From NCBI GenBank assembly GCA_963840885.1, contig CAWJAN010000001.1, positions 181,356 through 245,355 of the forward strand: a stretch of 64,000 bases of DNA, written 5' to 3'. The stretch is from an uncultured bacterium (lineage in GTDB: Bacteria > Patescibacteriota > Minisyncoccia > Phycocordibacterales > GWA1-40-21). Below the pieces are notes generated by a model that saw only the letters and a list, made by a program, of their open reading frames with translations, made no database searches and was not told where the DNA came from. Made by a program: the position numbers and the translations under genes. This document shows, piece after piece, positions 2,777-46,382 of the stretch; positions within the stretch are counted from its first letter, which is position 1; the number at the start of each line of letters is the position of its first letter.

Positions 2777-2860
2777 GCGCAGGTGGCGGAGTGGTCAATC
2801 GCAATTGACTGTAAATCAATCGCCCATTGGGCTACGTAGGTTCAAATCCTACCCTGCGCA
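2777..2860 (+). tRNA. tRNA-Tyr(GTA)
   Basis: Acceptor GCGCAGG/CCTGCGC with discriminator A. Anticodon arm ATTGA-CTGTAAA-TCAAT gives anticodon GTA. The long variable arm is typical of bacterial tRNA-Tyr. T-loop TTCAAAT. Confidence 0.85.
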
Positions 2861-2865
2861 CAAAA

Positions 2866-2896
2866 AATAAAAACCCGAAAGGGTTTTTATTTTTTG
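2866..2896. terminator. Rho-independent terminator hairpin (bidirectional)
   Basis: aaaaacccg-aaa-cgggttttt followed by a T-run. A-run/T-run on both sides. It lies between convergent tRNA-Tyr (+) and clpB (-). Confidence 0.6.
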
Positions 2897-2921
2897 TGCG
2901 CATAAGTCTTGTCTTTTGCTC

Positions 2922-10456: not shown

Positions 10457-10486
10457 GAATTTTACAAAGTAAAATTCGGCGGAATT

Positions 10487-10568
10487 GCCCGGGTGGTGGA
10501 ATTGGTATACACGCACGACTTAAAATCGTGTCTCGAAAGAGATGTGGGTTCGATGCCCACCCCGGGCA
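10487..10568 (+). tRNA. tRNA-Leu(TAA)
   Basis: Acceptor GCCCGGG/CCCGGGC. Anticodon arm CACGA-CTTAAAA-TCGTG gives anticodon TAA. The long variable arm is typical of tRNA-Leu. T-loop TTCGATG. Confidence 0.85.
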
Positions 10569-30661: not shown

Positions 30662-30730
30662 TTTTATACAACCAGCTTAAAAATTAATTTAAACCTTGAA
30701 TTTATTGGGCTTTTCAAGTATCCTAGGACG

Positions 30731-30774
30731 TATTGCGGGATCGTCCCTGGCCGGGCAGGCTAATGGTAGGACAC
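30731..30774 (+). repeat. Duplicated 5' fragment of tRNA-Gln (acceptor 5' strand + D-arm) with a 14-nt insertion
   Basis: attGCGGGATCGTC[cctggccgggcagg]CTAATGGTAGGACACA matches tRNA-Gln 31016-31046 (attGCGGGATCGTCTAATGGTAGGACACA), apart from the bracketed insert. It diverges immediately after ACACA. Confidence 0.6.
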
Positions 30775-30775
30775 A

Positions 30776-31034
30776 AATGCAGTATTATTTATATATTTTA
30801 AAAAGTTTGAAAGATAGTAAGCACTACGTTGGCATTACTTCAAATTTAGAAGATAGATTAAAATATCATAATGCAGGCAAAGTTAAATCAACCAAAAGCA
30901 GAAGACCATTCATTATTCTATATATTGAAAAATATAGTAGTAGAATTGAAGCAAGAAAAAGAGAAGTGTATTTGAAAAGTTACAAAGGCAGCAAAGAAAA
31001 ATTGACCTTGATCGAAAATTGCGGGATCGTCTAA
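30776..31034 (+). CDS. GIY-YIG nuclease-family small protein (YhbQ/UPF0213-like)
   Basis: 86 aa from ATG 30776. YYLYILKSLKDSKHYVGITSNLEDRLKYHNAGK...SRRPFIILYIE...REVYLKSYKG is the GIY-YIG/URI fold. The last 5 codons and stop are encoded by the first 15 nt of tRNA-Gln. The ORF-track N-terminal extension back to 30696 would read through the tRNA fragment and is rejected. Confidence 0.68.
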
Positions 31035-31089
31035 TGGTAGGACACATCCCTCTGGAGGATGTTATCTTGGTTCGAGTCCAAGTCCCGCA
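31019..31089 (+). tRNA. tRNA-Gln(CTG)
   Basis: Acceptor UGCGGGA/UCCCGCA with U1-A72 and discriminator G73 (classical tRNA-Gln identity features). Anticodon arm CATCC-CTCTGGA-GGATG gives anticodon CTG. T-loop TTCGAGT. Confidence 0.8.
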
Positions 31090-31110
31090 GCAAAAATGAA
31101 CGCAGTGATT

Positions 31111-31250
31111 TTTTGCTGCGGGAAGAAGCTCTGGGAGAGCTTCTTCTTGGACTCGAAGCCCGATTGAGCATATTTTATGAGTAAAGCGAAATAAAATATC
31201 CAATCGGGATACTGAGTCTGTAAGACTCGAGTCCAAGTCCCGCAGCAAAT
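31111..31250 (+). repeat. tRNA-3'-end-mimicking palindromic element, copy 1 (next to tRNA-Gln)
   Basis: Outer arms tttgctgcggga / tcccgcagcaaa are the complement and a copy of the tRNA-Gln 3' terminus. The hairpin is gaagctctgggagagcttc. Inner arms cttggactcgaa / ctcgagtccaag are the complement and a copy of the tRNA-Gln T-arm. The conserved core is GCCCGATTGAG...CCAATCGGGATACTGAGTCTGTAAGACTCGAG. The same core and architecture occur at 44937-45080. Confidence 0.5.
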
Positions 31251-31733: not shown

Positions 31734-33101
31734 TCAAAAACCTTTCCAGGTATTTAGAAACCTTTCCCTCTCCTCTTTATTGCGCTCCCTCCAGATAAGC
31801 CATGCTATGAGGAAAAATATGAAAAGCAAGATTATGATTGCGAATAATATTATGAGCAAATCCATATATGGATTGCTGACGGAACTGACATCAAATTTTC
31901 CCTGGCTTGCGAATACCGGCTCATTTTTTGAATTGTATCCGGTTATATAAAATGAATAAAGCGTATCTTTAGGGAAATTCTGTATGACGGCCTGGAATGT
32001 CTTTCCCTTGATATCGTTATTGAAAAGATAAGAGAAGGTCTTGCTGGAATCAGCGGCATCCACTACCGTAAGCACAATTGATTTTATGCCCGCCGGCATT
32101 TTGCTTGCATCCGTAGTTATTATAAGCGGGGTCTTTGCGTCTACCGTTATGGTGCTAGATGATATCTTCAGATTCGAACTTTGCTGCGTAAAAACAAAAC
32201 TTGGATATGAAGTGGTTGAAGATGCTGATGACGTCGTGGAAGCCTGGCCTCCTGCACCAGAAGGAACAGTTGTCGTTCCTGTGCCTGATACCGGATATAT
32301 TGGAAATACCGGAACAGTGGATGAAGGAGATGATATAGGAATTGTGCTTGTCGTTCCGGAAGGTGGCACCAGATAAATCTTGGTTATAAGAGCATTGGAA
32401 AGGTTCCCATTCCTATTGTAAGAAAAGGCGGAATAATAATATGTTTTTCCATATGAAAGATTAAAGTCTATGGCGCTCTCCCCTGTTCCCGAATAAACCA
32501 GGAATCCGTCAACCGGATTTGCAGGAAAGAAAGTATCTGACCTGACTATCTTAACGCTTCCGAAATCCACGCTGTTAGGATTATTCCAGCTAAGCATCGC
32601 ATTATTAAGATTCTGCGTGGCCGTAAAATTTAGAATTGTCGGCGTGACTACTATTCCGCCTACTCCGGCATTTACCGGCGAAGCGGGCGGCGTCGAAGTG
32701 CTTGATGTGGAAATGACGCAGCTGTATGTAGTAAGAAGTTCAAGGCGCACTACAGATGTGGCTCCGCTTCCGCTTAGATTTATCGTCGTAGTCGGGCAAG
32801 ACGGGCTTGAAACCGAATATGAATTTGACCCGGAAATTTTCGTCACTTTGAAATAAACGCCGGATGTAGACGCGACGAATGTGACGTCCGAAGAATTGTC
32901 CAAGGTCACGTCGGCATAATTTGAATTCACGTCTATATTAGTGAATTGGCCTGATGTGGCAAAAATGATGCCTGGTGAGGCGGTATCAGACGTCAAAAAA
33001 GAAAAGTTTGTTGTTCCAGATATCTGAGCATCGTTAACCGCAAGCGCCATAATCGGCGCAAGAAGGAATCCGATTGAAACGATTGATATTTTTTTAAGCA
33101 T
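31734..33101 (-). CDS. Cell-surface Ser/Thr-rich protein with signal peptide and C-terminal TM anchor
   Basis: N-terminal signal MLKKISIVSIGFLLAPIMALA, low-complexity S/T/P-rich regions, and a C-terminal hydrophobic helix plus charged tail (LLIILFAIIILLFIFFLIAWLIWRERNKEERERF). Confidence 0.5.
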   Translation of the reverse strand: MLKKISIVSIGFLLAPIMALAVNDAQISGTTNFSFLTSDTASPGIIFATSGQFTNIDVNSNYADVTLDNSSDVTFVASTSGVYFKVTKISGSNSYSVSSPSCPTTTINLSGSGATSVVRLELLTTYSCVISTSSTSTPPASPVNAGVGGIVVTPTILNFTATQNLNNAMLSWNNPNSVDFGSVKIVRSDTFFPANPVDGFLVYSGTGESAIDFNLSYGKTYYYSAFSYNRNGNLSNALITKIYLVPPSGTTSTIPISSPSSTVPVFPIYPVSGTGTTTVPSGAGGQASTTSSASSTTSYPSFVFTQQSSNLKISSSTITVDAKTPLIITTDASKMPAGIKSIVLTVVDAADSSKTFSYLFNNDIKGKTFQAVIQNFPKDTLYSFYITGYNSKNEPVFASQGKFDVSSVSNPYMDLLIILFAIIILLFIFFLIAWLIWRERNKEERERFLNTWKGF

Positions 33102-33502: not shown

Positions 33503-36500
33503 TTAATTGGCCATTATACTTGCACCAATTACGTTGCTAGGAGATGCGCCTGTACCAGTACATGTATTCAACATATCTAGCACATCTCCCGCAGAAGCTG
33601 ACACCGTATGCGTTGTATCATGACAAGCGCTCGCACCTGCTGCTATAGTGCATGTAAGTGCCGTGCTTGCTCCATTTAGCCTAAGAACATATACTTCTGA
33701 GTCATTTACCGGAACATTAGAACGAGTTACTACATAAAGTTTGCTCAAAGTTGTAGCCACAGGCAATGGCGTAGGAATAACGCTAGTTTCGGTGCTGCTA
33801 TCATCAGCCGCACCAAAGTAAGTGGCGAATCCTCCTCCCGAACAACTAATGCTGCCATAGTTCTGGGTATTGCCAAATCGAATCATAGAACCAATGCCGA
33901 CTGTATTTCCGGTTCCTCCGTTTGCAATAGGAAGGGTACCGGTAACAGCGCTTGCCGATGCTAGGTTCACTTGGCCAAACGCAAGCGCAGTGCCTCCAGT
34001 ATTAACTACCAAAACTTGATTGGCCGTGCCCTGTATAGAAGCATTGTCTGCTGTAGCGTTTCCTGTAACCCCAAGAACGGATCTCGCGGAACCCTGTGTA
34101 AGATTAGCAAACGGAAGACGTCCAGTTACTCCATTTGCAAGATTTATTTGCGCCCATGCCGGATTATTAGAAGTGCCCGTATTAGAAAGATAACTTGTTG
34201 CGGATGTATTTTTTGCTAATGCCGAAATTGTATTTGCCGCCGAACCGTAAAGGATATCGCCTTGCGATGCTGCATTCGGAAGCACGAGCGTTGACCATGC
34301 AGGCGCTGTTCCCGCTCCGCCGGAACGCAAGAATGAACCGGCCGTAACATCTATTAGTTTTGAAAGCGTTGTTGCAGCACTTGCATAAAGAATATCGCCG
34401 GTTGTATAAGTTGTTTGTCCTGTTCCTCCGTTTGCCGCTATCAAACTTCCGCCGGAAAGTGAAAGTGTTCCTGATGTTGTAATAGGTGTGCCGGTAAACG
34501 TAAGGCCGATAGTCGAAGATGCAGCAACGCTTGTAACTGTTCCTCCAGCAGAGCTAGAAGTAGAAATAACATTTCCATTTGCATCTACTCCGAGAAAAGA
34601 GTTCGCTAGATTTAAAATTTTTAAACCGTTTGTAGTTGTAGTGCCTGTTACAGAAAGAGCTGTATTCGGAGTGGATGTGCCTATTCCTACATTACCATTC
34701 AAAAGCTCGATATTTCCTGAATTATCAAGAAGGATTTTTTCATTGCTCGATGTAGATGTTCCGCCTTGGAATAATGCGACTGAAGTCGAAGACTGCCTTG
34801 ATGCGATTACAAATTGATTGGTGAAGAAAGTTGCGGATGGATTTCCATATTGGAAAGATGCCGATAGAGTGCCATTCGAATCATACATATTCATACCAGC
34901 ATACGAGGTGTTTAAAGTTGATTGATTCCTTATTGTCGCATCCCCGGAAGAAGCTATTGTGAGAGGAGCTGCGGTTATAGTGCTCGTACCAATACTGACA
35001 TTTCCTCCGGCTGCGTAATAAATATTATTTCCGGATGTCGTCCACTGGGATGAGGTAATACCGAGCGTTGAAGTTGACATCCATGCCAAGCCATCCGTTG
35101 CCGTGGAACTCGCCGCAAGAATCTGTCCATCTGAACCTATACCCAGACGGACATTGTTTGATCCGTCGCTTGAAATCAAGTCTCCTTTTGTTGTTATTGG
35201 AGAAAGGCTATTGAAAGCCGAAGTAGCCGTGGTTTGGCCCGTGCCGCCCTGGCTGATTCCGACCGTTCCCGTTGAAGTGAGATTTTTTGAACTGTCAGTG
35301 AAAATAGCTGCTGATGCGGCAAGACCTGGATAATTGGCGGTGCCGCTTATTGTTGTCGTTATACCTGATCTGCCTATGGAAACTGAAGTCGATGTTGATG
35401 CTCCGAGGTTTAATGCTCCCGCGGAATAAATATTGAGCGAACCTGCGCCGGTGGACCAAGTCGATGTCGCCCCGCCGGTGAGCGTCAATGCTCCCCCGGA
35501 AGTAAAACTGGAAGCTCCAGTAGGAGTTAACAACACTGATCCTGCACCTGAAGCGGTAAAATTTCCTGATGTAAGGGTCAAGGCAATATTTGTAGAAGCG
35601 GCTGTAGTGATTGACGAGCCTCCGTCATAAGCGCTTTGCAATGTCGGCGAAGATATCGATGACCATTTTATGCCGCTTGCTTGGGTTGAATCAACGGTTA
35701 AAACCTGTCCATTGGTTCCAGAAACCGGCAATCTTATATTATTTGTTCCATTATGAACTATGATATCGCCTTTTGTCGTAAGCGGAGACAATGCATTAAA
35801 TCCTGCTGTCTGTGTTGTCTGACCTGTGCCGCCATTTGTAATTCCCAAAGTTCCAGACAGAGTCAATGTTCCAGAATCCGTAATCGGGCTTCCGGAGAAT
35901 GAGAGTCCGGACAATGTCGTTGAAGCTGCAACGCTTGTCACTGTTCCTGAATTTCCATCTGCCCAGGCAAGGCCGGTTGAAGCACCTGAGCTTGCAATGA
36001 GAAATTGTCCGTTTGAACCGACACTGAGTTTCACATTATCTGAACCATCACTTGAAATTATGTCGCCTTTCGCAGTAATCGGAGACAAATTATTAAATGC
36101 GGTCGTGGTTGCCGCAGCTCCGGTTCCGCCATTTGCAACATTTAATGTTCCTGTAAGGACTAAAGTTCCTGAAGTTGAAACTGGTCCGCCAGTAAATGTA
36201 AATCCTGTAGTTCCCCCTGATGCATCAACACTCATTACAGTTCCGTTGTCTTCATCATCTCCCCAATCAAAGCCGGTCGGTGAAGTTGAAGAGGCACGTA
36301 AAAATAAGCCATCAGTACCGGTTGCAAGAGCTGTAATTGTATCCGGAGAGGACCAGTAAGCCAGAGTATTTGTTGCTCCGGATCCTGAATTAACTATAAA
36401 TGTTGAAGATGCATATGAGAAAGAAGGAAAGGCGGATGAAGCGTAAGTGAAAGACGGATATGTCGAGGTTGCATCTGCGATTGAGAGATATGTCGCTGCG

Positions 36501-38995
36501 GCGGAGGTTGTGGAAAGTTTTGCATCAAGCGTTGCTTGCAGATCTGCTTGGTCAGAAAGAAGGCCTGTGATGGATCCCCAGCTTACAGCAGCGGCAGATG
36601 TGGCCGACCAGTCGAAACCTGTCGGAGAAGTGGACGAGGCTCGCAAAAATTGTCCTGGAAGTCCGGTTGTGATGGTTCCGAGTCCATGCAAAGAAGACCA
36701 ATATGTAATCGTATTCGTGGCACCGGTTCCATTTGCAAAAGTGGACGATGCATATGGGAATGAAACATATGTCGCCGCGGCGGAAGTCGTGGAAAGATAG
36801 CCGCCGAGAGAAGATTGCGTCGCATATGTTGAAGAACCGTAATCGTAAGTGACGAAAGTGGATGATGCGTAAGTGAAAGACGGATATGTCGAGGTTGCAT
36901 CCGCGATTGAGAGATATGTCGCTGCGGCGGAGGTTGTGGAAAGTTTTGCATCAAGCGTTGCTTGCAGATCTGCTTGGTCAGAAAGAAGGCCTGTGATGGA
37001 TCCCCAATCAACGGTTGTTGTTGTGGTAGCCACCCAGTCAAAACCGCTTGCGGATGTTGAAGATGCGGTAAGGAAATATCCTGGCGTTCCGCTTGGAATA
37101 GTTCCCAGAGTTCCTGTCCCGCTCCAATAAGGAATGGTTTTTGCAACGCCATTCCCTGCTCCGGCTACAAAAGTCGATGAAGCGTTCGTGATAGTCAGAT
37201 ATGTCGCCGCGGCGGAAGTCGTGGAAAGATAGCCGCCGAGAGAAGATTGCGTCGCATATGTTGATGAACCGTAATCATAAGTTGCGAAGGCCGAAGAAGC
37301 ATAGGCGAAAGACGGATATGTAGACGTGGCGTCTGATATCGCAAGGTATGTGCTTGCGGCGGAAGTCGTGGAAAGATAGCCGTCAAGGCTTGTCGTCGAA
37401 ATATAGCCTGCCGGATTTGAAGAGAGATAATATGTCGATGATGCCTCATCTATAGACAGATAAGTCGATGATGCGTATGTAAACGAAACATATGTTGCTG
37501 CGGCGGAAGTCGTGGAAAGAAAACCTACCGAAGAAGTTGGCGAAGTCCATGACAAACTGCCGGAGCCGTCGGTAGTCAAAACATAACCGGCTGAACCGTC
37601 TGAATCCGGAAAGGTGTATGTTGTAGAGCTTGTAATCGAATTCGGAATAAATCCGACATAGCCAGAAGTGGAAGCCGAGAGCCTCAGTTCTCCTTTTACA
37701 TCAAGGGCTGATCCGGGAATTGTCGTGCCTATGCCGACATTGCCATCGCCATCGATTATCATGCGCTCATTTGTCGTATCGGCGCCGCCGGTGATAAATT
37801 TTATTGAGGAATCGCCGCCGGTTAAAGCTGAAGGGAAAAGCGTGCCGATTACAAGATCATTTCCTCCGCTCACTAAAAATCCGTTATCCGGGCCTCCAAG
37901 CGGAAACGTAGGATTGTTATATCCGGAAGATGTTATGCCCATTGTCATGGAATTTTGTTGCGGATAGGGACTGTCATGATTGTCGGCGCCCGCAGATAAG
38001 ACAGAAGCTGCTGCGTTGCCTGCATTCCTGTTGGTAACATTCAAAAACAAGTTGTCATTGATATCTCCGTTGCCGGTTATGGTTCCTGGGTTTCCTGGGT
38101 CAGCTTCGACTCTGAATTTTTCTGTTCCGAAAGAATCCGATCCTACGAGGACCTGGCCTGCATTATTTATTATAAAAGGCGTAGTATCATTTGGTTCATC
38201 GTCTACTTGGAAACTGTTTCCGTCGCCAAGATTTTTTACATATAATGGCATCGCCGTGGAACCTGCTTGGGTTCTTACCTCCACTATAGCCGGGTTTCCA
38301 GTCGCTGTTGACGGAGAGCTCTCGCCAAAAACCATTCCTGTCTGATCCGGACTTGCCAAAGACCAGTTCCATGCCTGAGGATTGTCTCCATTATCTATCG
38401 TATTGCCTGCGGTTGCCGCAAACAAAGAAGAAAGCGTTGTGGCTGGAGTTGAGGAACTGAGAAGTTCCAGCCAGTTTGAAAGAGTACTCGGCGGAGTAGC
38501 TGAAAGTATGTAAGATTTGTTTTCATCGGTCCTTATGGCGACATCTCCCACATCGGCTGAAAGCGCAAGCATAGATGCTTCATCGCTGACTACATAGGTA
38601 TGCGTAATGACAAGAGATGGCAATTGAGAAGCGAAAACTTGGCCGTTTCCATCAAGCGTAGCTACTCCGCCAGGAACACCTACCGGCAAATTGCTCATCG
38701 GCACGACTCCGGACGAATCGAGAGGAGCTATACCGTTTGCATCGCCTACTCCGAGCCCGGCATTCGATAAAGCATTGGTGACTGAAACCCAAATGGCATT
38801 CCCGGATGAATCTGAAGACAATATGAAATTATTATTCGCTCCGCTTTCGAATTTTAAAGCGCCGGAAACGGTAAGGCTTCCGCCTGTTGAAATATTCGTA
38901 CCTATTGTAGTAGCTGCAAAAACCAAAGCAGGAGCGATGGCCAATCCCATCGATAATGAAACTGAAAACAAAATTTTATATGTTTTTATTTTCAT
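33503..38995 (-). CDS. Giant (1830 aa) secreted repeat protein / putative adhesin with phage tail-fibre-like NGGTG motifs
   Basis: Signal peptide MKIKTYKILFSVSLSMGLAIAPALVFAA. G/S/T/A-rich beta-strand repeats. Five or more copies of (A/I/S)NGGTG(x)T...(F/A)N(N/A/S)L..(I/L)T.KGD. Roughly 142-aa near-identical tandem repeats (WGSITGLLSDQADLQATLDAKLSTTSAAATYLSIADATSTYPSFTYASS occurs twice verbatim). Higher local GC than its surroundings. The many internal + and - ORFs in the track are artefacts of the repeats. Confidence 0.8.
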   Translation of the reverse strand: MKIKTYKILFSVSLSMGLAIAPALVFAATTIGTNISTGGSLTVSGALKFESGANNNFILSSDSSGNAIWVSVTNALSNAGLGVGDANGIAPLDSSGVVPMSNLPVGVPGGVATLDGNGQVFASQLPSLVITHTYVVSDEASMLALSADVGDVAIRTDENKSYILSATPPSTLSNWLELLSSSTPATTLSSLFAATAGNTIDNGDNPQAWNWSLASPDQTGMVFGESSPSTATGNPAIVEVRTQAGSTAMPLYVKNLGDGNSFQVDDEPNDTTPFIINNAGQVLVGSDSFGTEKFRVEADPGNPGTITGNGDINDNLFLNVTNRNAGNAAASVLSAGADNHDSPYPQQNSMTMGITSSGYNNPTFPLGGPDNGFLVSGGNDLVIGTLFPSALTGGDSSIKFITGGADTTNERMIIDGDGNVGIGTTIPGSALDVKGELRLSASTSGYVGFIPNSITSSTTYTFPDSDGSAGYVLTTDGSGSLSWTSPTSSVGFLSTTSAAATYVSFTYASSTYLSIDEASSTYYLSSNPAGYISTTSLDGYLSTTSAASTYLAISDATSTYPSFAYASSAFATYDYGSSTYATQSSLGGYLSTTSAAATYLTITNASSTFVAGAGNGVAKTIPYWSGTGTLGTIPSGTPGYFLTASSTSASGFDWVATTTTTVDWGSITGLLSDQADLQATLDAKLSTTSAAATYLSIADATSTYPSFTYASSTFVTYDYGSSTYATQSSLGGYLSTTSAAATYVSFPYASSTFANGTGATNTITYWSSLHGLGTITTGLPGQFLRASSTSPTGFDWSATSAAAVSWGSITGLLSDQADLQATLDAKLSTTSAAATYLSIADATSTYPSFTYASSAFPSFSYASSTFIVNSGSGATNTLAYWSSPDTITALATGTDGLFLRASSTSPTGFDWGDDEDNGTVMSVDASGGTTGFTFTGGPVSTSGTLVLTGTLNVANGGTGAAATTTAFNNLSPITAKGDIISSDGSDNVKLSVGSNGQFLIASSGASTGLAWADGNSGTVTSVAASTTLSGLSFSGSPITDSGTLTLSGTLGITNGGTGQTTQTAGFNALSPLTTKGDIIVHNGTNNIRLPVSGTNGQVLTVDSTQASGIKWSSISSPTLQSAYDGGSSITTAASTNIALTLTSGNFTASGAGSVLLTPTGASSFTSGGALTLTGGATSTWSTGAGSLNIYSAGALNLGASTSTSVSIGRSGITTTISGTANYPGLAASAAIFTDSSKNLTSTGTVGISQGGTGQTTATSAFNSLSPITTKGDLISSDGSNNVRLGIGSDGQILAASSTATDGLAWMSTSTLGITSSQWTTSGNNIYYAAGGNVSIGTSTITAAPLTIASSGDATIRNQSTLNTSYAGMNMYDSNGTLSASFQYGNPSATFFTNQFVIASRQSSTSVALFQGGTSTSSNEKILLDNSGNIELLNGNVGIGTSTPNTALSVTGTTTTNGLKILNLANSFLGVDANGNVISTSSSAGGTVTSVAASSTIGLTFTGTPITTSGTLSLSGGSLIAANGGTGQTTYTTGDILYASAATTLSKLIDVTAGSFLRSGGAGTAPAWSTLVLPNAASQGDILYGSAANTISALAKNTSATSYLSNTGTSNNPAWAQINLANGVTGRLPFANLTQGSARSVLGVTGNATADNASIQGTANQVLVVNTGGTALAFGQVNLASASAVTGTLPIANGGTGNTVGIGSMIRFGNTQNYGSISCSGGGFATYFGAADDSSTETSVIPTPLPVATTLSKLYVVTRSNVPVNDSEVYVLRLNGASTALTCTIAAGASACHDTTHTVSASAGDVLDMLNTCTGTGASPSNVIGASIMAN
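36440..37300 (-). repeat. Near-identical ~426-bp tandem nucleotide repeats inside the giant surface-protein gene
   Basis: A stretch of roughly 130 nt beginning gaaagacggatatgtcgaggttgcatc... and ending ...gatggatcccca recurs at about 36441 and 36867, with a further degenerate copy after that. Period about 426 bp = 142 codons, in frame. Confidence 0.6.
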
Positions 38996-44251: not shown

Positions 44252-44794
44252 ATGTTTTGGAGCAGAATGGGTTTCAGGACTTTCATACTTTATTTGGTAA
44301 AAGGGATACTGCCCGGAATTTTTCTGATGATACTGTCTGTTTTTCTTCTTTTGATAAAAAGCTATCTCGTAAGCGGAGCTAATTCAGAAATAATACAGCT
44401 GGGAAATTCGTATCAGATAATAATAACCGTTGCAGGCATACTTATGATTGCAGCGTTTCCCATCATAGCTCTCGGAATAATAATAAATATGTGGCGCTAT
44501 TGGAGAATCCAATACAAGCTGGAAGATGATGTGCTCAGATTCAACCGAGGAATAATAAGCGTTAAAGAACTCTCCATACCGTATACAAAAATAGAAGACG
44601 TGGACCTTGATCAGAGCGTTCTCGGGAGAATTTTCGGAGTCGCAAGATTATCCATAATAACATCAGGACGCGAAGAAAAAGGAGCCACTAGCGAAACGGA
44701 AATGATTTTCAATATGATAGACATAGGTAAAGCCAGGGATCTCCAAAAAGAACTGATATCAAGAGGAAGTGTGCAAAAAGTCAAAGAAATTTAA
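44252..44794 (+). CDS. Bacterial PH-domain (bPH_2/DUF304, YdbS/YdbT-like) membrane protein
   Basis: Two N-terminal TM helices flank a short loop. Then RFNRGIISVKELSIPYTKIEDVDLDQSVLGRIFGVARLSIITSG, the characteristic bPH_2 signature. Confidence 0.7.
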   Translation: MFWSRMGFRTFILYLVKGILPGIFLMILSVFLLLIKSYLVSGANSEIIQLGNSYQIIITVAGILMIAAFPIIALGIIINMWRYWRIQYKLEDDVLRFNRGIISVKELSIPYTKIEDVDLDQSVLGRIFGVARLSIITSGREEKGATSETEMIFNMIDIGKARDLQKELISRGSVQKVKEI

Positions 44795-44818
44795 AACCGC
44801 CCAAAAGGCGGTTTTTTC
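44794..44818 (+). terminator. Rho-independent terminator
   Basis: aaaaccgcc-caaaa-ggcggtttttt immediately after the stop codon. Confidence 0.65.
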
Positions 44819-44821
44819 ATG

Positions 44822-44895
44822 CGCGGGTGACCGGACTCGAACCGGCGACCTCTCCCGTGACAGGGGAGCGTTCTAACCAACTGAACTACACCCGC
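44822..44895 (-). tRNA. tRNA-Asp(GTC)
   Basis: The reverse complement gives acceptor GCGGGTG/CACCCGC, anticodon arm CTCCC-CTGTCAC-GGGAG (anticodon GTC), and T-loop TTCGAGT. Confidence 0.85.
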
Positions 44896-44936: not shown

Positions 44937-45080
44937 TCCTTTTGTGTCGACGGGTGGATTCGAGTCTTACAGACTCAGTACCCCGATTGGATTTTTCCGT
45001 TCATTTTCATTCCGGAAAAATTCTCAATCGGGCTTCGAATCCACCACGAAACTGCCATCCGGCAGTTTCTCGTCTGCACA
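44937..45080 (-). repeat. tRNA-3'-end-mimicking palindromic element, copy 2 (next to tRNA-Met/CAT)
   Basis: On the minus strand: tgtgcagacga (imperfect complement of the tRNA-Met 3' end) - hairpin gaaactgccggatggcagtttc - gtggtggattcgaa (complement of the tRNA-Met T-arm) - GCCCGATTGAG - 33-nt spacer - CCAATCGGGGTACTGAGTCTGTAAGACTCGAA - tccacccgtcgacacaaaa (copy of the tRNA-Met 3' end). Same order and core as 31111-31250. Confidence 0.5.
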
Positions 45081-45111
45081 AATATAAAACAATAAATTGT
45101 CTTATATTTTG

Positions 45112-45185
45112 TGTCGACGGGTGGATTCGAACCACCGACCTTAGCTTTATGAGTGCTACGCTCTAACCACCTGAGCTACGCCGAC
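45112..45185 (-). tRNA. tRNA with CAT anticodon (Met elongator or Ile2-lysidine type)
   Basis: The reverse complement gives acceptor GTCGGCG/CGTCGAC (one G-U), D-arm GCTCAGGTGGTTAGAGC, anticodon loop CTCATAA (CAT), and T-arm GGTGG-TTCGAAT-CCACC. Confidence 0.78.
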
Positions 45186-46078: not shown

Positions 46079-46333
46079 TTACCCTGTTAAATAAGATTTG
46101 ATTCTTTTTCTAATAAATGACTTGCCATGATATGTTTTAAGATATTTTTCTCGATGCGTTGCGTCTTGTTGATTATGGCAAACTTCATAATATACAAGTT
46201 TAAACGGTTTTCTATCTTTTGTCGAATTAACGTTCCCTTTATTATGTTCATCAAATCTTAACTTTAAATTTTTAGTGAAACCTGTATAAAACTTCTTATC
46301 TTTTTGTGATTGCAGTACATATGTATAATACAT
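46079..46333 (-). CDS. GIY-YIG nuclease-family small protein (YhbQ/UPF0213-like), second copy
   Basis: MYYTYVLQSQKDKKFYTGFTKNLKLRFDEHNKG...STKDRKPFKLVYYE...REKYLKTYHGK is the GIY-YIG fold. It is a paralogue of the 30776-31034 product. Confidence 0.7.
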   Translation of the reverse strand: MYYTYVLQSQKDKKFYTGFTKNLKLRFDEHNKGNVNSTKDRKPFKLVYYEVCHNQQDATHREKYLKTYHGKSFIRKRIKSYLTG

Positions 46334-46382
46334 GAGTAATGAAATTTAAAGCTATTTAACAGGGTGAATTATAGCACTAGAA

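Follow-up and report, generated by a model that had tools for sequence, protein, structure and literature searches.

Type-A elements, candidate small non-coding insertions on the 3' side of tRNA genes in Candidatus Paceibacterota

Several described systems insert at tRNA genes or carry a segment that matches their target, and the traits named here recur in, or are proposed for, the element reported below. Islands and prophages that integrate at tRNA genes, and CIMEs, are inserted on the 3' side of the tRNA, which is kept intact by a repeat starting in the T-loop; they accrete in tandem at one tRNA and their presence varies among relatives. The identity block of T-loop-integrating islands reportedly begins in the T-loop and stops shortly beyond the tRNA end. 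In E. coli tyrT, 178-bp tandem repeats are said to end each in the last 19 nt of tRNA-Tyr, and there too the repeated units 3' of a tRNA carry its 3' end, in X-E-X-E-X arrays. The MITE-like Correia/NEMIS, REPIN/BIME, RUP and ERIC sequences are small, non-coding, multi-copy and intergenic, form long hairpins, are co-transcribed with neighbouring genes and are mobilised in trans. Integron attC sites and the attP(+) of CTX phage are imperfect palindromes that fold as one strand, in which structure is kept more than sequence, the stem is a duplex copy of the chromosomal target and the layout is target, inverted copy, insert, target. In group II introns (EBS/IBS), IS200/IS605 elements (guide tetranucleotides) and IS110 (bridge RNA), a variable segment complementary to the target lies between conserved modules and the target junction falls inside the helix made by this segment. 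The dual guides of TIGR-Tas, which is defined by a k-turn of box C (RUGAUGA) and box D (CUGA), two 8-12-nt spacers and an adjacent Nop-domain protein, are a non-mobile analogue of the guide-like arm described here (PMC12045711).

The stretch of DNA that was analysed, 64 kb long and called the window, holds two copies of what we call the type-A element, and ARAGORN and Rfam place a same-strand tRNA directly upstream of both (Table 1). The layout is a complement of the T-loop and the 3' strand of the T-stem, a core built as a three-way junction, and a copy of the tRNA 3' end. Within the core, the 29-nt motif AATCGGGRTACTGAGTCTGTAAGACTCGA was found exactly twice in 64 kb, against none expected from 100 shuffles, and a second core string, TCGAAGCCCGATTGAG, likewise occurs exactly twice in the window. 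This agrees with the initial annotation, which had described two copies with a common core at these places; it had put their extent at about 140 nt, and with the distal repeat they span 155 nt (Gln) and 167 nt (Met). Only the upstream tRNAs were called when tRNAs and pseudogenes were searched for with RF00005 and ARAGORN, and none was called within 31095-31249 or 44940-45106 even at E<=10. A recent segmental duplication of a tRNA with its element, a reading that the initial annotation had itself raised, was rejected, since the tRNAs are not the same, the window copies show no relation in P2, in H1 or in the distal part of P4, and further copies lie at other tRNAs elsewhere.

Each copy ends, as had been noted, in a copy of the tRNA 3' terminus that includes 3-4 nt of trailer. 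The direct repeat, which begins at T55 of the T-loop, is exact over 23 nt in the Gln copy (tcgagtccaagtcccgcagcaaa) and over 24 nt in the Met copy (tcgaatccacccgtcgacacaaaa), and in the Gln copy its distal member supplies the 3' strands of helices P3 and P1. The hairpin that had been read as GNRA-capped is GAGTCTGTAAGACTC, 15 nt long, which forms either 5 bp with the pentaloop UGUAA or 6 bp with GUA; one A had been counted twice. P2 is unlike in sequence between the two copies and the hairpin is kept. Both pairs of arms had been taken to derive from the neighbouring tRNA. This holds for the inner arms, which are exact 12-nt complements of T54-N65 in both copies, and fails for the outer arms as a family feature or part of the design: the outer (acceptor) arm is missing in L009, L010 and L017 and weak in L012, L016 and L018. 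In the Gln copy the outer arm is ttttttgctgcggga in H1, the complement of the acceptor 3' strand and trailer, and when the whole transcript is folded H1 has the 3' end of the tRNA itself as its partner in the minimum-free-energy structure. In the Met copy, for which an outer pair had been listed as well, tttgtgcagacga is an acceptor complement with two internal mismatches (gtgCAgacg against cgtcGAcac). The acceptor-strand complement matches the tRNA's own trailer over 14 nt (Gln) and >20 nt (Met) and the distal copy's trailer over 12 nt in either case, and its best partner is thus the tRNA itself.

Table 1. Positions of the two type-A copies, their parts and neighbouring features in the window
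Feature	Positions	Strand	Remarks
Type-A element, Gln copy	31095-31249	+	inserted DNA plus distal repeat; 3' of tRNA-Gln
tRNA-Gln(CTG), intact	31020-31091	+	ARAGORN; Rfam 59.8 bits; T54 = 31071
Gln proximal repeat X1	31072-31094	+	T55 to 3 nt past tRNA end
Gln trailer hairpin H1, remainder	31095-31123	+	loop GAACGCAGTGA (GA mini-hairpin motif), then ttttttgctgcggga
Gln hairpin P2	31124-31144	+	9-bp stem, G-rich loop (gcucUGGGAgagc)
Gln left (inner) arm cttggactcgaa	31146-31157	+	exact complement (0 mismatches) of tRNA-Gln T54-N65; 5' strand of helix P3
Gln type-A core	31158-31226	+	junction G, P4, junction AUACU, P5; 103 bits with covariance model R1
Gln P4	31159-31208	+	cccgauug/caaucggg, bulged A, AU stem capped by GA mini-hairpin
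Gln junction AUACU	31209-31213	+	within type-A core
Gln P5	31214-31228	+	GAGUC-UGUAA-GACUC; final two bases are T55-C56 of distal repeat
Gln distal repeat X2	31227-31249	+	exact 23-nt copy of tRNA-Gln 3' end (T55 through discriminator, then caaa)
Type-A element, Met copy	44940-45106	-	inserted DNA plus distal repeat; 3' of tRNA-Met
tRNA-Met(CAT), intact	45111-45185	-	ARAGORN and Rfam
Met proximal repeat X1	45107-45130	-	from comparison of repeat limits
Met trailer hairpin H1, remainder	45070-45106	-	near-perfect palindrome with tRNA 3' end and trailer; terminates in tttgtgcagacga
Met hairpin P2	45048-45069	-	gaaacugcc-GGAU-ggcaguuuc
Met left (inner) arm ggtggattcgaa	45034-45045	-	exact complement of tRNA-Met T54-N65
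Met type-A core	44964-45033	-	98.5 bits with covariance model
Met P4	44982-45032	-	
Met junction	44977-44981	-	
Met P5	44962-44976	-	overlaps repeat by 2 nt
Met distal repeat X2	44940-44963	-	exact 24-nt copy of tRNA-Met 3' end
tRNA-Asp	44821-44895	-	next gene of the tRNA-Met operon; ARAGORN
Terminator-like site	44793-44815	-	3' of tRNA-Asp; only such site on this strand

At least 17 type-A copies were found on 11 contigs from different metagenomes. All full-length copies with a visible upstream flank lie 25-75 nt 3' of a same-strand tRNA gene, and the tie to tRNA 3' ends proposed from the window extends, in other metagenomes, to copies after Leu, Glu, Val, Ile, His and Ser tRNAs. Ten different tRNAs hold type-A copies, and the same core stands at Gln, Met, Leu-GAG, Leu-TAG, Glu, Val-TAC, Ile, His and Ser-GCT. 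One metagenome scan gave 11 copies at 10 loci, with a same-strand tRNA just upstream at nine of the ten; the remaining locus, L014, is cut by the contig end. Covariance model R1 found six further copies, some of which have compensatory P5 stems (GAACC/GGUUC, GAAGC/GCUUC, GACCC/GGGUU). The 70-nt core is near-identical, with few bases differing, across ten tRNAs on contigs of different metagenomes, and this conservation is partly ascertained because the copies outside the window all stem from a search that required the exact P5 sequence. When 185,579 representative genomes were scanned for ATCGGGNTACTGAGN9CTCGA, only eight matches were obtained, which were chance matches in unrelated phyla, and no element was found by scans of viral contigs or by phage BLAST. 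The unpaired GAA, GAG, GUAC and UGUAA are unchanged even in diverged copies, and a GA mini-hairpin caps both the trailer hairpins and P4. The P2 loop UGGGA is common to the window Gln, L018, L017-His and L009-Ser copies, and in the first three of these the P2 loop and core are alike and the arms unlike. H1 is unlike in every copy, which means that the left boundary of the element is not conserved, and this makes a classical transposase that acts on two defined ends unlikely. From the sequence comparison, the mobile unit probably starts at P2, since P2 is common to three type-A copies and to both members of a pair with a different core, type D.

In every type-A copy the repeat starts at T55 and it ends 1-8 nt beyond the tRNA, with lengths of 20, 21, 22, 23, 23, 24, 25 and 30 nt, and 84 nt in L009, so that the T55 end alone is fixed. 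The complement, of 10-17 nt, lies just left of the core and always terminates opposite T54; it varies between copies and yet is flanked by the conserved modules P2 and core. An exact inverted copy of at least 9 nt, anchored at T54 and within 400 nt downstream, was found for 12 of the 51 tRNAs examined, whereas the same test upstream gave none of 51, the longest match being 8 nt. Mismatches in the arm are concentrated away from the core, with 10 of 14 at positions 11-12. The inner arm and the terminal copy track the neighbouring tRNA in nearly all copies. The initial annotation had named arms that match no adjacent tRNA as evidence against its reading, and such a case is found in part: the arms of L011 both fit a sequence like tRNA-Leu, whereas the adjacent gene is tRNA-Val, and L017 holds a solo 3' fragment with no tRNA nearer than 1.5 kb. 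Three older copies (L017-His, L021-Asp and L024-Asp) have a decayed distal repeat and an arm that is perfect against the tRNA; in L017-His this repeat differs at 3 of 20 aligned positions and by two small gaps. A perfect arm with a decayed repeat suits a role in insertion no better than it suits pairing of arm and tRNA in the transcript. Lying between conserved modules, the variable segment has the behaviour of a target guide; for an arm to fit a new tRNA, distal mismatches would have to be tolerated and selection to follow, or a step would have to be templated. Three sources of the arm were rejected, namely fold-back copying, hairpin-capped ends and template switching in several steps, as they give the topology only with ad hoc steps, mainly because P2 interrupts the complement.

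For both window copies the folding energy is about -70 kcal/mol; compared to shuffles, this gives z-scores of -8 and -9. Paired cells amounted to 93.5%, compared to 83.4% in shuffles, none of 500 of which reached 93.5%, and to 28-52% in slid controls. Fifteen helix pairs are changed on both sides, with G-U pairs and compensatory changes present, and 11 of 11 copies have a sense strand more stable than the antisense strand, the margin being 2.6-18.9 kcal/mol. When the whole transcript is folded, the minimum-free-energy structure of 10 of 11 copies joins the arm to the T-arm half of the tRNA itself, and this fold beats that of the tRNA plus a separate hairpin by 6-14 kcal/mol. In the modelled structure the complement and the first two bases of P5 would hold the duplicated tRNA segment in one continuous sense-strand helix, inside which the junction of core and repeat is predicted to fall. 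The computed single-strand structure is well supported and may be read equally as that of an RNA or of single-stranded DNA.

Genomes with and without the element were compared, as the initial annotation had proposed. In L019 and L022, whose GatA is 81-83% identical, the spacers between tRNA-Met and tRNA-Asp are 84-90 nt long and have no element, and the window sequence directly past the Met distal repeat aligns with the tRNA-Met trailer of both. That the orthologous interval is empty in these relatives shows that the element is an insertion. Similarly, tRNA-Gln is without the element in L022, L024 and L028. Only 2 of the 13 window tRNAs carry one which, together with the absence in close relatives, shows that it is dispensable. 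A promoter-like site lies 5' of tRNA-Met and the sole terminator-like site lies beyond tRNA-Asp, which puts the Met copy inside the transcription unit; judging from these predicted sites, at least the Met copy is probably co-transcribed with its tRNA operon. The empty sites and the single-strand structure keep alive both halves of the earlier suggestion, a mobile element or a structured RNA, and the two do not exclude each other.

Three more core types (B, C and D) have unrelated cores and the same architecture, at Ser, Leu, Asp, Val and Met tRNAs, and single genomes hold several copies of a core type. In L024, both type-D copies have the same P2 and core and unlike arms. Two identical units stand in tandem in L013, and in L018 and L009 two different cores stand behind a single tRNA. 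Beside these, a coreless hairpin that recruits the tRNA 3' end was seen after tRNA-Tyr (window 2856-2901), and an orphan 10-nt inverted copy of the T-arm after tRNA-Cys (10478-10487).

Among the 50 window ORFs, all housekeeping or of unknown function, none encodes a recombinase, a transposase or a reverse transcriptase. Neither the window nor about 60 kb of other loci with the element yielded an integrase; no tyrosine or serine recombinase was found among ORFs common to these loci, no HUH protein in the window, and no autonomous relative with the same ends. Four GIY-YIG ORFs, two near the window copies and two in L013, were considered as helpers and rejected; their closest homologs lie directly upstream of tRNA-Gln in five element-free contexts, which links the nuclease to tRNA-Gln and not to the element. 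An NYN nuclease and a 2'-5' RNA-ligase-like protein encoded between the full copy and the solo fragment in L017 were likewise rejected, being non-recurrent and missing from the window. Rfam 15 gave no match for type A (E<=10) or for types B-D (E<=1), and neither there nor in a full-text literature search was a description of the element found, in keeping with the earlier statement that no element with this layout is described. Self-cleaving ribozymes (hammerhead, twister, twister-sister, pistol, hatchet, hairpin and HDV-like) had no Rfam 15 match, and the arrangement CUGANGA...GAAA round a three-way junction was not found by eye.

Comparison with the known systems gave partial likeness in each case. 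Compared to islands and CIMEs, the element shares the exact tRNA 3'-end repeat of 20-30 nt from T55 onward; it is, however, about 150 bp and not kilobases long, has no integrase in or near it in the window and loci searched, places one core with a matching repeat at ten tRNAs where an integrase family has one attP and one target tRNA, and holds an internal inverted T-arm half and helices that covary on one strand. Correia/NEMIS and similar sequences have conserved terminal inverted repeats and short fixed duplications, whereas here the arms are target-derived and unlike in each copy, the 20-30-nt duplication has one fixed and one variable end, and the target is always a tRNA gene. A MITE was rejected for the same differences, since the paired arms are tRNA-derived, the core does not end in inverted repeats (GCCCGATT... 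and ...TGTAAGAC), and the varying repeat length does not suit the duplication of a fixed-stagger transposase. IS200/IS605-derived PATE or REPIN have conserved subterminal hairpins at both ends, leave the target unduplicated and go with a TnpA/RAYT gene in the genome; here the conserved hairpin (P5) is confined to the right end and the target is duplicated. The guide systems differ in that no reverse transcriptase, TnpA, IS110 recombinase or Tas/Nop protein, no box C/D and no catalytic RNA match was found here, that the complement is contiguous over 10-17 nt, and that the target is also duplicated. TIGR-Tas and box C/D guides were rejected because the bulge of the GA motif is on the wrong strand for a k-turn and none of the 50 ORFs encodes a Nop-domain protein. 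An attC or CTX-type site was also rejected: by direct reading CTCGAAG...CTCGAG is off the R-box (RYYYAAC...GTTRRRY) and dif-like consensus, no recombinase was found and the stem sequence changes with the tRNA. The tyrT repeats belong to a single locus in one lineage, without a core common to different tRNAs and without an inverted T-arm copy; their arrays can be compared to the one in L013.

On balance, we think it probable that type A is one member of a class of small, non-coding, non-autonomous insertions on the 3' side of tRNA genes in Candidatus Paceibacterota (Patescibacteria/CPR), type A itself being a previously undescribed family of about 150-base non-coding insertions. Duplication of the stretch between T55 and a point just past the tRNA end keeps the tRNA intact, one copy completing it and the other terminating the element. 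The element would be copied to new tRNA genes in trans by an enzyme that it does not encode, and this enzyme would break or join at T54/T55, with the near-universal T-loop as the common anchor. The internal complement may serve as a guide or splint which picks the tRNA and aligns the target strand with the 3' end of the element, while the other junction would be imprecise and give the variable repeat length. The folded form could be RNA or a single-stranded lagging-strand template, and by sequestering the spare tRNA tail it would leave tRNA maturation undisturbed; the outer acceptor complement would be a secondary extension of the trailer hairpin, outside the core design. A bolder proposal, which we regard as unlikely, is that this is a new protein-less mobile unit in which an exchangeable 10-17-nt segment pairs with the T-loop and T-stem strand of the tRNA gene or transcript and directs insertion at T54/T55, either by host or helper activity or by a catalytic single-strand core, as a natural programmable guide-directed system.

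Insertion by such a class has to be weighed against other readings, of which a functional structured non-coding RNA that rides on tRNA transcription, its spread as DNA being a side effect, is a real possibility although a lesser one, and is compatible with mobility. RNase Z and RNase P would cut such an RNA, with its tRNA-like terminal helix of acceptor and T-arm, out of the tRNA precursor; P1 would be its acceptor stem, P2 with its GG loop would resemble a D-arm, P4 an anticodon arm and P5 with its U-G-N-R-A pentaloop a T-arm, and it might act in tRNA metabolism, for example by pairing with the tRNA 3' half in the precursor or as a tRNA mimic or decoy. It would account for the sense-strand-specific structure with its G-U pairs and compensatory changes, for the invariant unpaired bases in diverged copies, for the Met copy inside a tRNA operon, for arms still perfectly complementary in three copies with decayed distal repeats, and for the arm-to-T-arm fold favoured in 10 of 11 copies; against this, the element is dispensable, four unrelated cores with one layout are hard to square with one function of the RNA, several copies have no acceptor-like helix P1, and Rfam holds no such family. 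We consider it improbable that the copies are miniature satellites or remnants of tRNA-integrating islands, served by a tyrosine integrase encoded elsewhere that would recombine an attP holding the tRNA 3' end with the T-loop of the gene, with the repeats as attL and attR, the core as protein-binding sites and the arrays formed by accretion. The repeat does have the extent of the classical identity block, two different elements stand in tandem behind one tRNA, sites are empty in relatives, and in L017-His the tRNA-side repeat matches the arm and the distal repeat differs, as expected if the element had brought its own copy. However, besides the small size and the lack of an integrase in the window and the loci searched, an element-borne attP cannot supply matching repeats at ten tRNAs, covarying and strand-asymmetric helices are not double-stranded protein sites, and no half-site like the T-stem 5' strand lies beside the distal T-loop; nor does the simple att-site remnant of the initial annotation explain one core at ten tRNAs or the internal complement.

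Two further readings were weighed. Slippage or template switching at T-arm and terminator hairpins, with the core as a common hairpin module and no mobility, would fit the coreless tRNA-end hairpins after tRNA-Tyr and tRNA-Cys and the one GA mini-hairpin that caps both trailer hairpins and P4, but it is very unlikely given a near-identical 70-nt core at ten differing tRNAs from different metagenomes, several copies of each core type per genome and a right junction exact at T55 in all type-A copies. Harder still to credit is an intron-like insert in the T-loop, whereby the mature tRNA would consist of the 5' part and the distal repeat after removal of X1 to core. Patescibacteria are rich in tRNA introns (PMC13011429), and in 10 of 11 copies this very topology is the thermodynamically favoured one for the full transcript; yet the tRNA with the proximal repeat is intact and normal-scoring in every copy, and the distal repeat is decayed and no longer fits the 5' half in L011, L017-His and L024-Asp. 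A group I intron was rejected, as no Intron_gpI match was obtained and the tRNA is complete without removal, and an archaeal intron because the bulge-helix-bulge motif does not fit.

Were the RNA functional instead, it would be a new class of tRNA-linked structured RNAs absent from Rfam. The repeats of the element can mislead the annotation of tRNAs and assembly in Patescibacteria, and the elements are markers of recent DNA exchange between lineages. A variable target-complementary segment between conserved modules is the signature behind the discoveries of group II introns, IS110 bridge RNA and CRISPR; if the insertion reading is right, the target here is a near-universal T-loop with an adjustable extension, and the insertion chemistry and the helper enzyme would be worth finding. 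Genome-reduced CPR bacteria would then host a class of tiny parasites of tRNA genes, with at least four core types, which leave the tRNA unharmed by duplicating its tail and clamping the spare copy in a helix.

Across the window 13 tRNA genes were found with ARAGORN and Rfam, and two of them, tRNA-Gln(CTG) and tRNA-Met(CAT), bear a downstream element. The long core motif of the element occurs exactly twice in the 64 kb, where 0 occurrences are expected in shuffled sequence, and a shorter left motif likewise has two exact occurrences. On the tRNA strand, read 5' to 3', the order at both loci is the tRNA with the proximal repeat X1, the trailer hairpin H1, helix P2, a left arm, the core, and the distal repeat X2. 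X1 is the final 19-20 nt of the tRNA, from T55, with 3-4 nt of trailer, the left arm is 12 nt exactly complementary to T54-N65, and X2 repeats X1 exactly (23 nt in the Gln copy and 24 nt in the Met copy). When folded in isolation each element has an energy of about -70 kcal/mol (z = -8 and -9); P1 pairs the acceptor complement with the acceptor portion of X2, P3 pairs the left arm with the T portion of X2 and encloses a three-way junction that bears P4 and P5, and P2 is a separate helix. The initial annotation had given the small hairpin a GNRA cap, which is wrong because P5, GAGUCUGUAAGACUC, is only 15 nt long and forms 5 bp with a UGUAA pentaloop; the outer arm that it described at tRNA-Met is indeed there but pairs with two mismatches. 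Rfam returned no family match for the window elements even at E<=10. A mini-hairpin motif, GA-[R(c nnn g)Y]-GA-A, such as GAGCGAAGCGAA or GAACGCAGUGA, caps P4 and many tRNA-trailer hairpins, those of the compared contigs L009, L011, L016, and L018 among them; its R-Y pair covaries (G-C or A-U) and the motif is similar to d(GCGAAGC), a hairpin of very high stability, and to tandem sheared G-A motifs.

The window is a stretch of ordinary chromosome. When 50 of its ORFs were compared to Pfam, all were either housekeeping (including LepA, ClpB, IF-2, RNR, RNase J, GatA, LigA, RF, FtsEX, and type IV pilus) or without assigned function, and no recombinase, transposase, reverse transcriptase or Nop-domain protein was among them. 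GatA homologs with 67-83% identity come from sources named, for example, Candidatus Paceibacterota and Pacebacteria, and therefore the host is a CPR/Patescibacteria bacterium; CCA is mostly not encoded in its tRNA genes. A 455-aa Ser/Thr-rich ORF directly downstream of the Gln copy, which has no Pfam match, and an 1830-aa ORF with many repeated STTSAAATYLS-like units are probably surface proteins. Relatives whose GatA is 81-83% identical keep the order gatCA, small ORF, tRNA-Met, tRNA-Met, tRNA-Asp, and two of them (L019 and L022) have a Met-Asp spacer of 84-90 nt that lacks the element. The sequence directly after X2 in the window, aaaaggaattgaagaaataaaaatttctgatat, aligns with aaaagaaaaatgttgaaagaatagagtttttctgttac, which directly follows tRNA-Met in L019. 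Thus, the window has gained about 167 nt compared to the empty site, and this gain includes one additional 24-nt copy of the tRNA end. The tRNA-Gln genes of L022, L024, and L028 are likewise without element.

Coordinates of the elements and of associated features (L numbers are compared metagenome or relative contigs)
Feature	Contig	Position	Strand	Remark
tRNA-Gln(CTG)	window	31020-31091	+	ARAGORN, Rfam
Element after tRNA-Gln	window	31095-31249	+	type A
Mini-hairpin motif sites	window	31096-31108, 31178-31192
tRNA-Met(CAT)	window	45111-45185	-	ARAGORN, Rfam
Element after tRNA-Met	window	44940-45106	-	type A
455-aa ORF	window	31734-33101
1830-aa ORF	window	33503-38995	-
Small GIY-YIG nuclease ORF	window	30696-31034	+	ends within 5' end of tRNA-Gln
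Second GIY-YIG ORF	window	46124-46336	-	inserted between gatA and next ORF
GIY-YIG homologs	L024	10001-10369
	L025	10001-10246
	L028	10001-10261
Type B	L009			tRNA-Ser-TGA; second unit behind tRNA-Leu
Type C	L021			tRNA-Asp (17-nt contiguous complement)
	L009			tRNA-Val
Type D	L024			tRNA-Asp and tRNA-Met2
Core loci, types B, C, D	L009	1290-1486	-
	L009	11056-11150	+
	L009	9100-9394	-
	L021	12818-13040
	L024	1500-1662	-
	L024	2040-2200	-
Hairpin with orphan left arm	window	10457-10487		between tRNA-Cys and tRNA-Leu(TAA)
Terminator after tRNA-Tyr	window	2856-2901
Tandem ~120-nt units	L021	12502-12742		upstream of tRNA-Asp
NYN nuclease and 2'-5' RNA-ligase-like genes	L017	4571-6009

A scan of one genome per species with a relaxed core pattern gave chance matches only. 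When metagenomes were scanned for GGNTACTGAGTCTGTAAGACTC, 11 copies were found on 10 contigs from different projects. In every locus that retains its upstream flank, the element is preceded at 34-75 nt by a tRNA gene of the same orientation: Leu-GAG (twice), Glu, Val-GAC, Val-TAC, Ile (two tandem units), His, Leu-TAG, and Ser-GCT. The tRNA 3' end is repeated directly after P5 in 9 of 10 cases; this repeat is exact except for single-run C-length differences in L015 and L016, and it starts at T55, and its other end varies from a few nt short of the annotated tRNA end to 8 nt past it. A covariance model built from 12 copies added a copy after tRNA-His in L017, one after tRNA-Ser in L013, diverged second units in L018 and L011, and a solo 3' fragment in L017. 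The diverged copies have compensatory P5 stems (GAACC/GGUUC, GAAGC/GCUUC, and GACCC/GGGUU) and retain the loop UGUAA and the junction GUAC, so P5 is a real hairpin with a conserved loop. The left arm, the core, and X2 are general across copies. The outer acceptor complement is long in the window copies, partial in L013 and L015, and absent from the single-hairpin copies in L009, L010, and L017; where present it is extended by a complement of the trailer of the same tRNA, and with the tRNA 3' end it forms H1, of 14 bp at Gln and about 24 bp at Met.

A script was used that took the 51 tRNAs of the compared loci and searched the 400 nt on either side of each for the longest exact inverted copy with its anchor at T54. 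Such a copy of 9-17 nt was found downstream of 12 of them, and in the upstream control it was 8 nt at most. Besides type A, the core family to which both window copies belong, this search detected three other cores (types B, C, and D), each at two tRNAs and none with an Rfam match, that have the same architecture of hairpin, T-arm complement, core, and tRNA-end copy. The left arm terminates exactly opposite T54 in all types; on the right side, the junction falls at T55 in type A and at about T60 in types B-D. P2 and the core are common to both type-D copies, which differ in the arm between these modules; likewise, three type-A copies (at tRNA-Gln of the window, in L018, and at tRNA-His of L017) agree in the UGGGA loop of P2 and in the core and differ in their arms. 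Therefore, the target-complementary segment is internal to the repeated unit and is neither a captured flank nor a target duplication. In 16 left arms, 10 of the 14 arm-tRNA mismatches are at positions 11-12, the core-distal end. An orphan left arm, ggcggaattg, lies behind a hairpin of 9 bp in the window; it complements the T-loop/T-stem 3' strand of tRNA-Cys exactly (chance about 3e-5) and has neither a core nor a second tRNA-end copy.

The elements also form arrays. In L013 a unit occurs twice in identical form (X-E-X-E-X), in L018 a single tRNA-Ser is followed by two type-A-like units that differ from each other, and in L009 an 84-nt perfect repeat (X, hairpin, and left arm) lies on both sides of a type-A core, followed by the type-B core and a decayed third X. 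The clearest exception is L011, where the arms pair mutually and resemble the tRNA-Leu-GAG end of L009; the gene next to the element is tRNA-Val-GAC, and between them lies that tRNA's own trailer hairpin. In the tRNA-His copy of L017 the left arm is perfect against the tRNA and X2 deviates at several positions; P5, X2, and 17 nt of flank are repeated 1.5 kb away as the fragment, and between the two lie genes for an NYN nuclease and a 2'-5' RNA-ligase-like protein (2H phosphoesterase). A weak NYN homolog lies 3 kb from the elements in L013. Upstream of tRNA-Asp in L021 two tandem units share internal sequence and each starts with the first 12 nt of the tRNA (gcgatcgtagct), a 5'-end counterpart of the 3'-end duplications.

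In a 12-sequence alignment 93.5% of cells are standard pairs compared to 83.4% when shuffled (0 of 500 shuffles reached this), both sides change at 15 pairs, and pairing falls to 28-52% when the partner is slid by 1-3 columns. Covariation at 7 of 9 P3 pairs is expected because the 3' strand of P3 is a tRNA copy; in P4 there are C-G to U-A changes in L010 and L018 and one position is G-U in 8 of 12 copies. For each of the 11 copies tested, the fold of the tRNA-sense strand is more stable than that of its complement, by 2.6-18.9 kcal/mol, and this strand holds the majority of G-U pairs, hence the structure belongs to one strand, which would be the transcript or the sense DNA strand when single-stranded. 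Orientation cannot separate RNA from single-stranded DNA, because in genes that are transcribed in the direction of replication it is the sense strand that serves as lagging-strand template. The Met copy, located between tRNA-Met and tRNA-Asp, is almost certainly transcribed, as indicated by a promoter-like site upstream of tRNA-Met and the sole terminator-like site on that strand after tRNA-Asp. In minimum free energy folds of the whole tRNA and element transcript the left arm pairs with its own tRNA's T-arm half in 10 of 11 copies and the tRNA 5' half pairs with X2, topologically a tRNA with a 150-nt T-loop insert; this beats the tRNA with a separate hairpin by 6-14 kcal/mol, in energies computed without tRNA tertiary structure, and is partly trivial because the two repeats are identical. 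Co-transcriptional folding would yield a normal tRNA.

On balance we favor reading these as small non-autonomous insertion elements at tRNA genes. A functional tRNA-linked RNA, which is compatible with mobility, is possible but doubtful: invariant unpaired nucleotides and arm-tRNA complementarity that is perfect even in copies with decayed X2 speak for it, but the element is dispensable and its layout is common to four unrelated cores. That it is a miniature satellite of integrase-driven islands is rather unlikely, because although this would account for the repeat and the arrays, it leaves unexplained the many tRNAs per core and the strand-specific covariation, and no integrase was found among the 50 window ORFs or in about 60 kb of other element-bearing loci. 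Purely local palindrome growth is contradicted by the data and very improbable. The data also contradict a T-loop intron, a reading that would fit the rearranged fold and is the least probable of these, since every tRNA is complete with X1, and X2 is decayed and misfits the 5' half in L011, at tRNA-His of L017, and at tRNA-Asp of L024. Patescibacteria tRNAs often carry group I introns, at position 35/36, and the phylum lacks group II introns, which argues against a retro-mobile route (PMC13011429).

Both window copies have a GIY-YIG nuclease gene nearby, and such genes also occur in L013. The closest homologs of the one at tRNA-Gln (60-73% identity) are 4-50 nt upstream of tRNA-Gln(CTG or TTG) on several Patescibacteria contigs, and at the site of the second there is no gene in the relatives L019, L021, and L022. 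We rejected the nuclease as a helper of the element because these closest homologs are upstream of tRNA-Gln in five element-free contexts; its pairing with tRNA-Gln is a conserved, separate feature. The TIGR-Tas systems of Parcubacteria target both DNA strands with dual guides (PMC12045711), but here there are no box C/D motifs, and the ORFs scanned include no Nop protein.

For the insertion element the data show insertion polymorphism and a target duplication whose T55 end is fixed and whose other end is variable. In the fold, the left arm and the first two P5 bases keep the duplicated tRNA strand within one helix that runs without a break through P5 and P3 and encloses the core/X2 junction. 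A probable explanation is that the element, as RNA or single-stranded DNA, would be copied to tRNA genes through an activity that works at T54/T55, though any specific chemistry is much less certain than the overall reading. The near-universal T-loop would give 7 nt of pairing to any tRNA and the next 3-5 nt would tune the choice, tolerance of distal mismatches may allow occasional moves from tRNA to tRNA without re-templating 22 nt, and the second junction would be made imprecisely. The outer acceptor complement may be secondary, by outward growth of the trailer hairpin. A like tendency is seen where the element is absent, after tRNA-Tyr in the window: the intrinsic terminator there is a perfect 21-bp palindrome whose outer 6 bp use the last 6 nt of the tRNA (gcgcac...gtgcgc), which shows that trailer hairpins can recruit the acceptor 3' strand without any element.

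The layout is undescribed in Rfam 15 and in the open-access papers searched. The element shares its tRNA-end repeat with integrative islands, its size and palindromic fold with MITE-like repeats, and its internal target-complementary segment with guide-bearing elements. Small non-autonomous insertion elements are a kind already known, to which it would add a variant with this layout; that its mechanism is of a categorically new type has a low but real probability.
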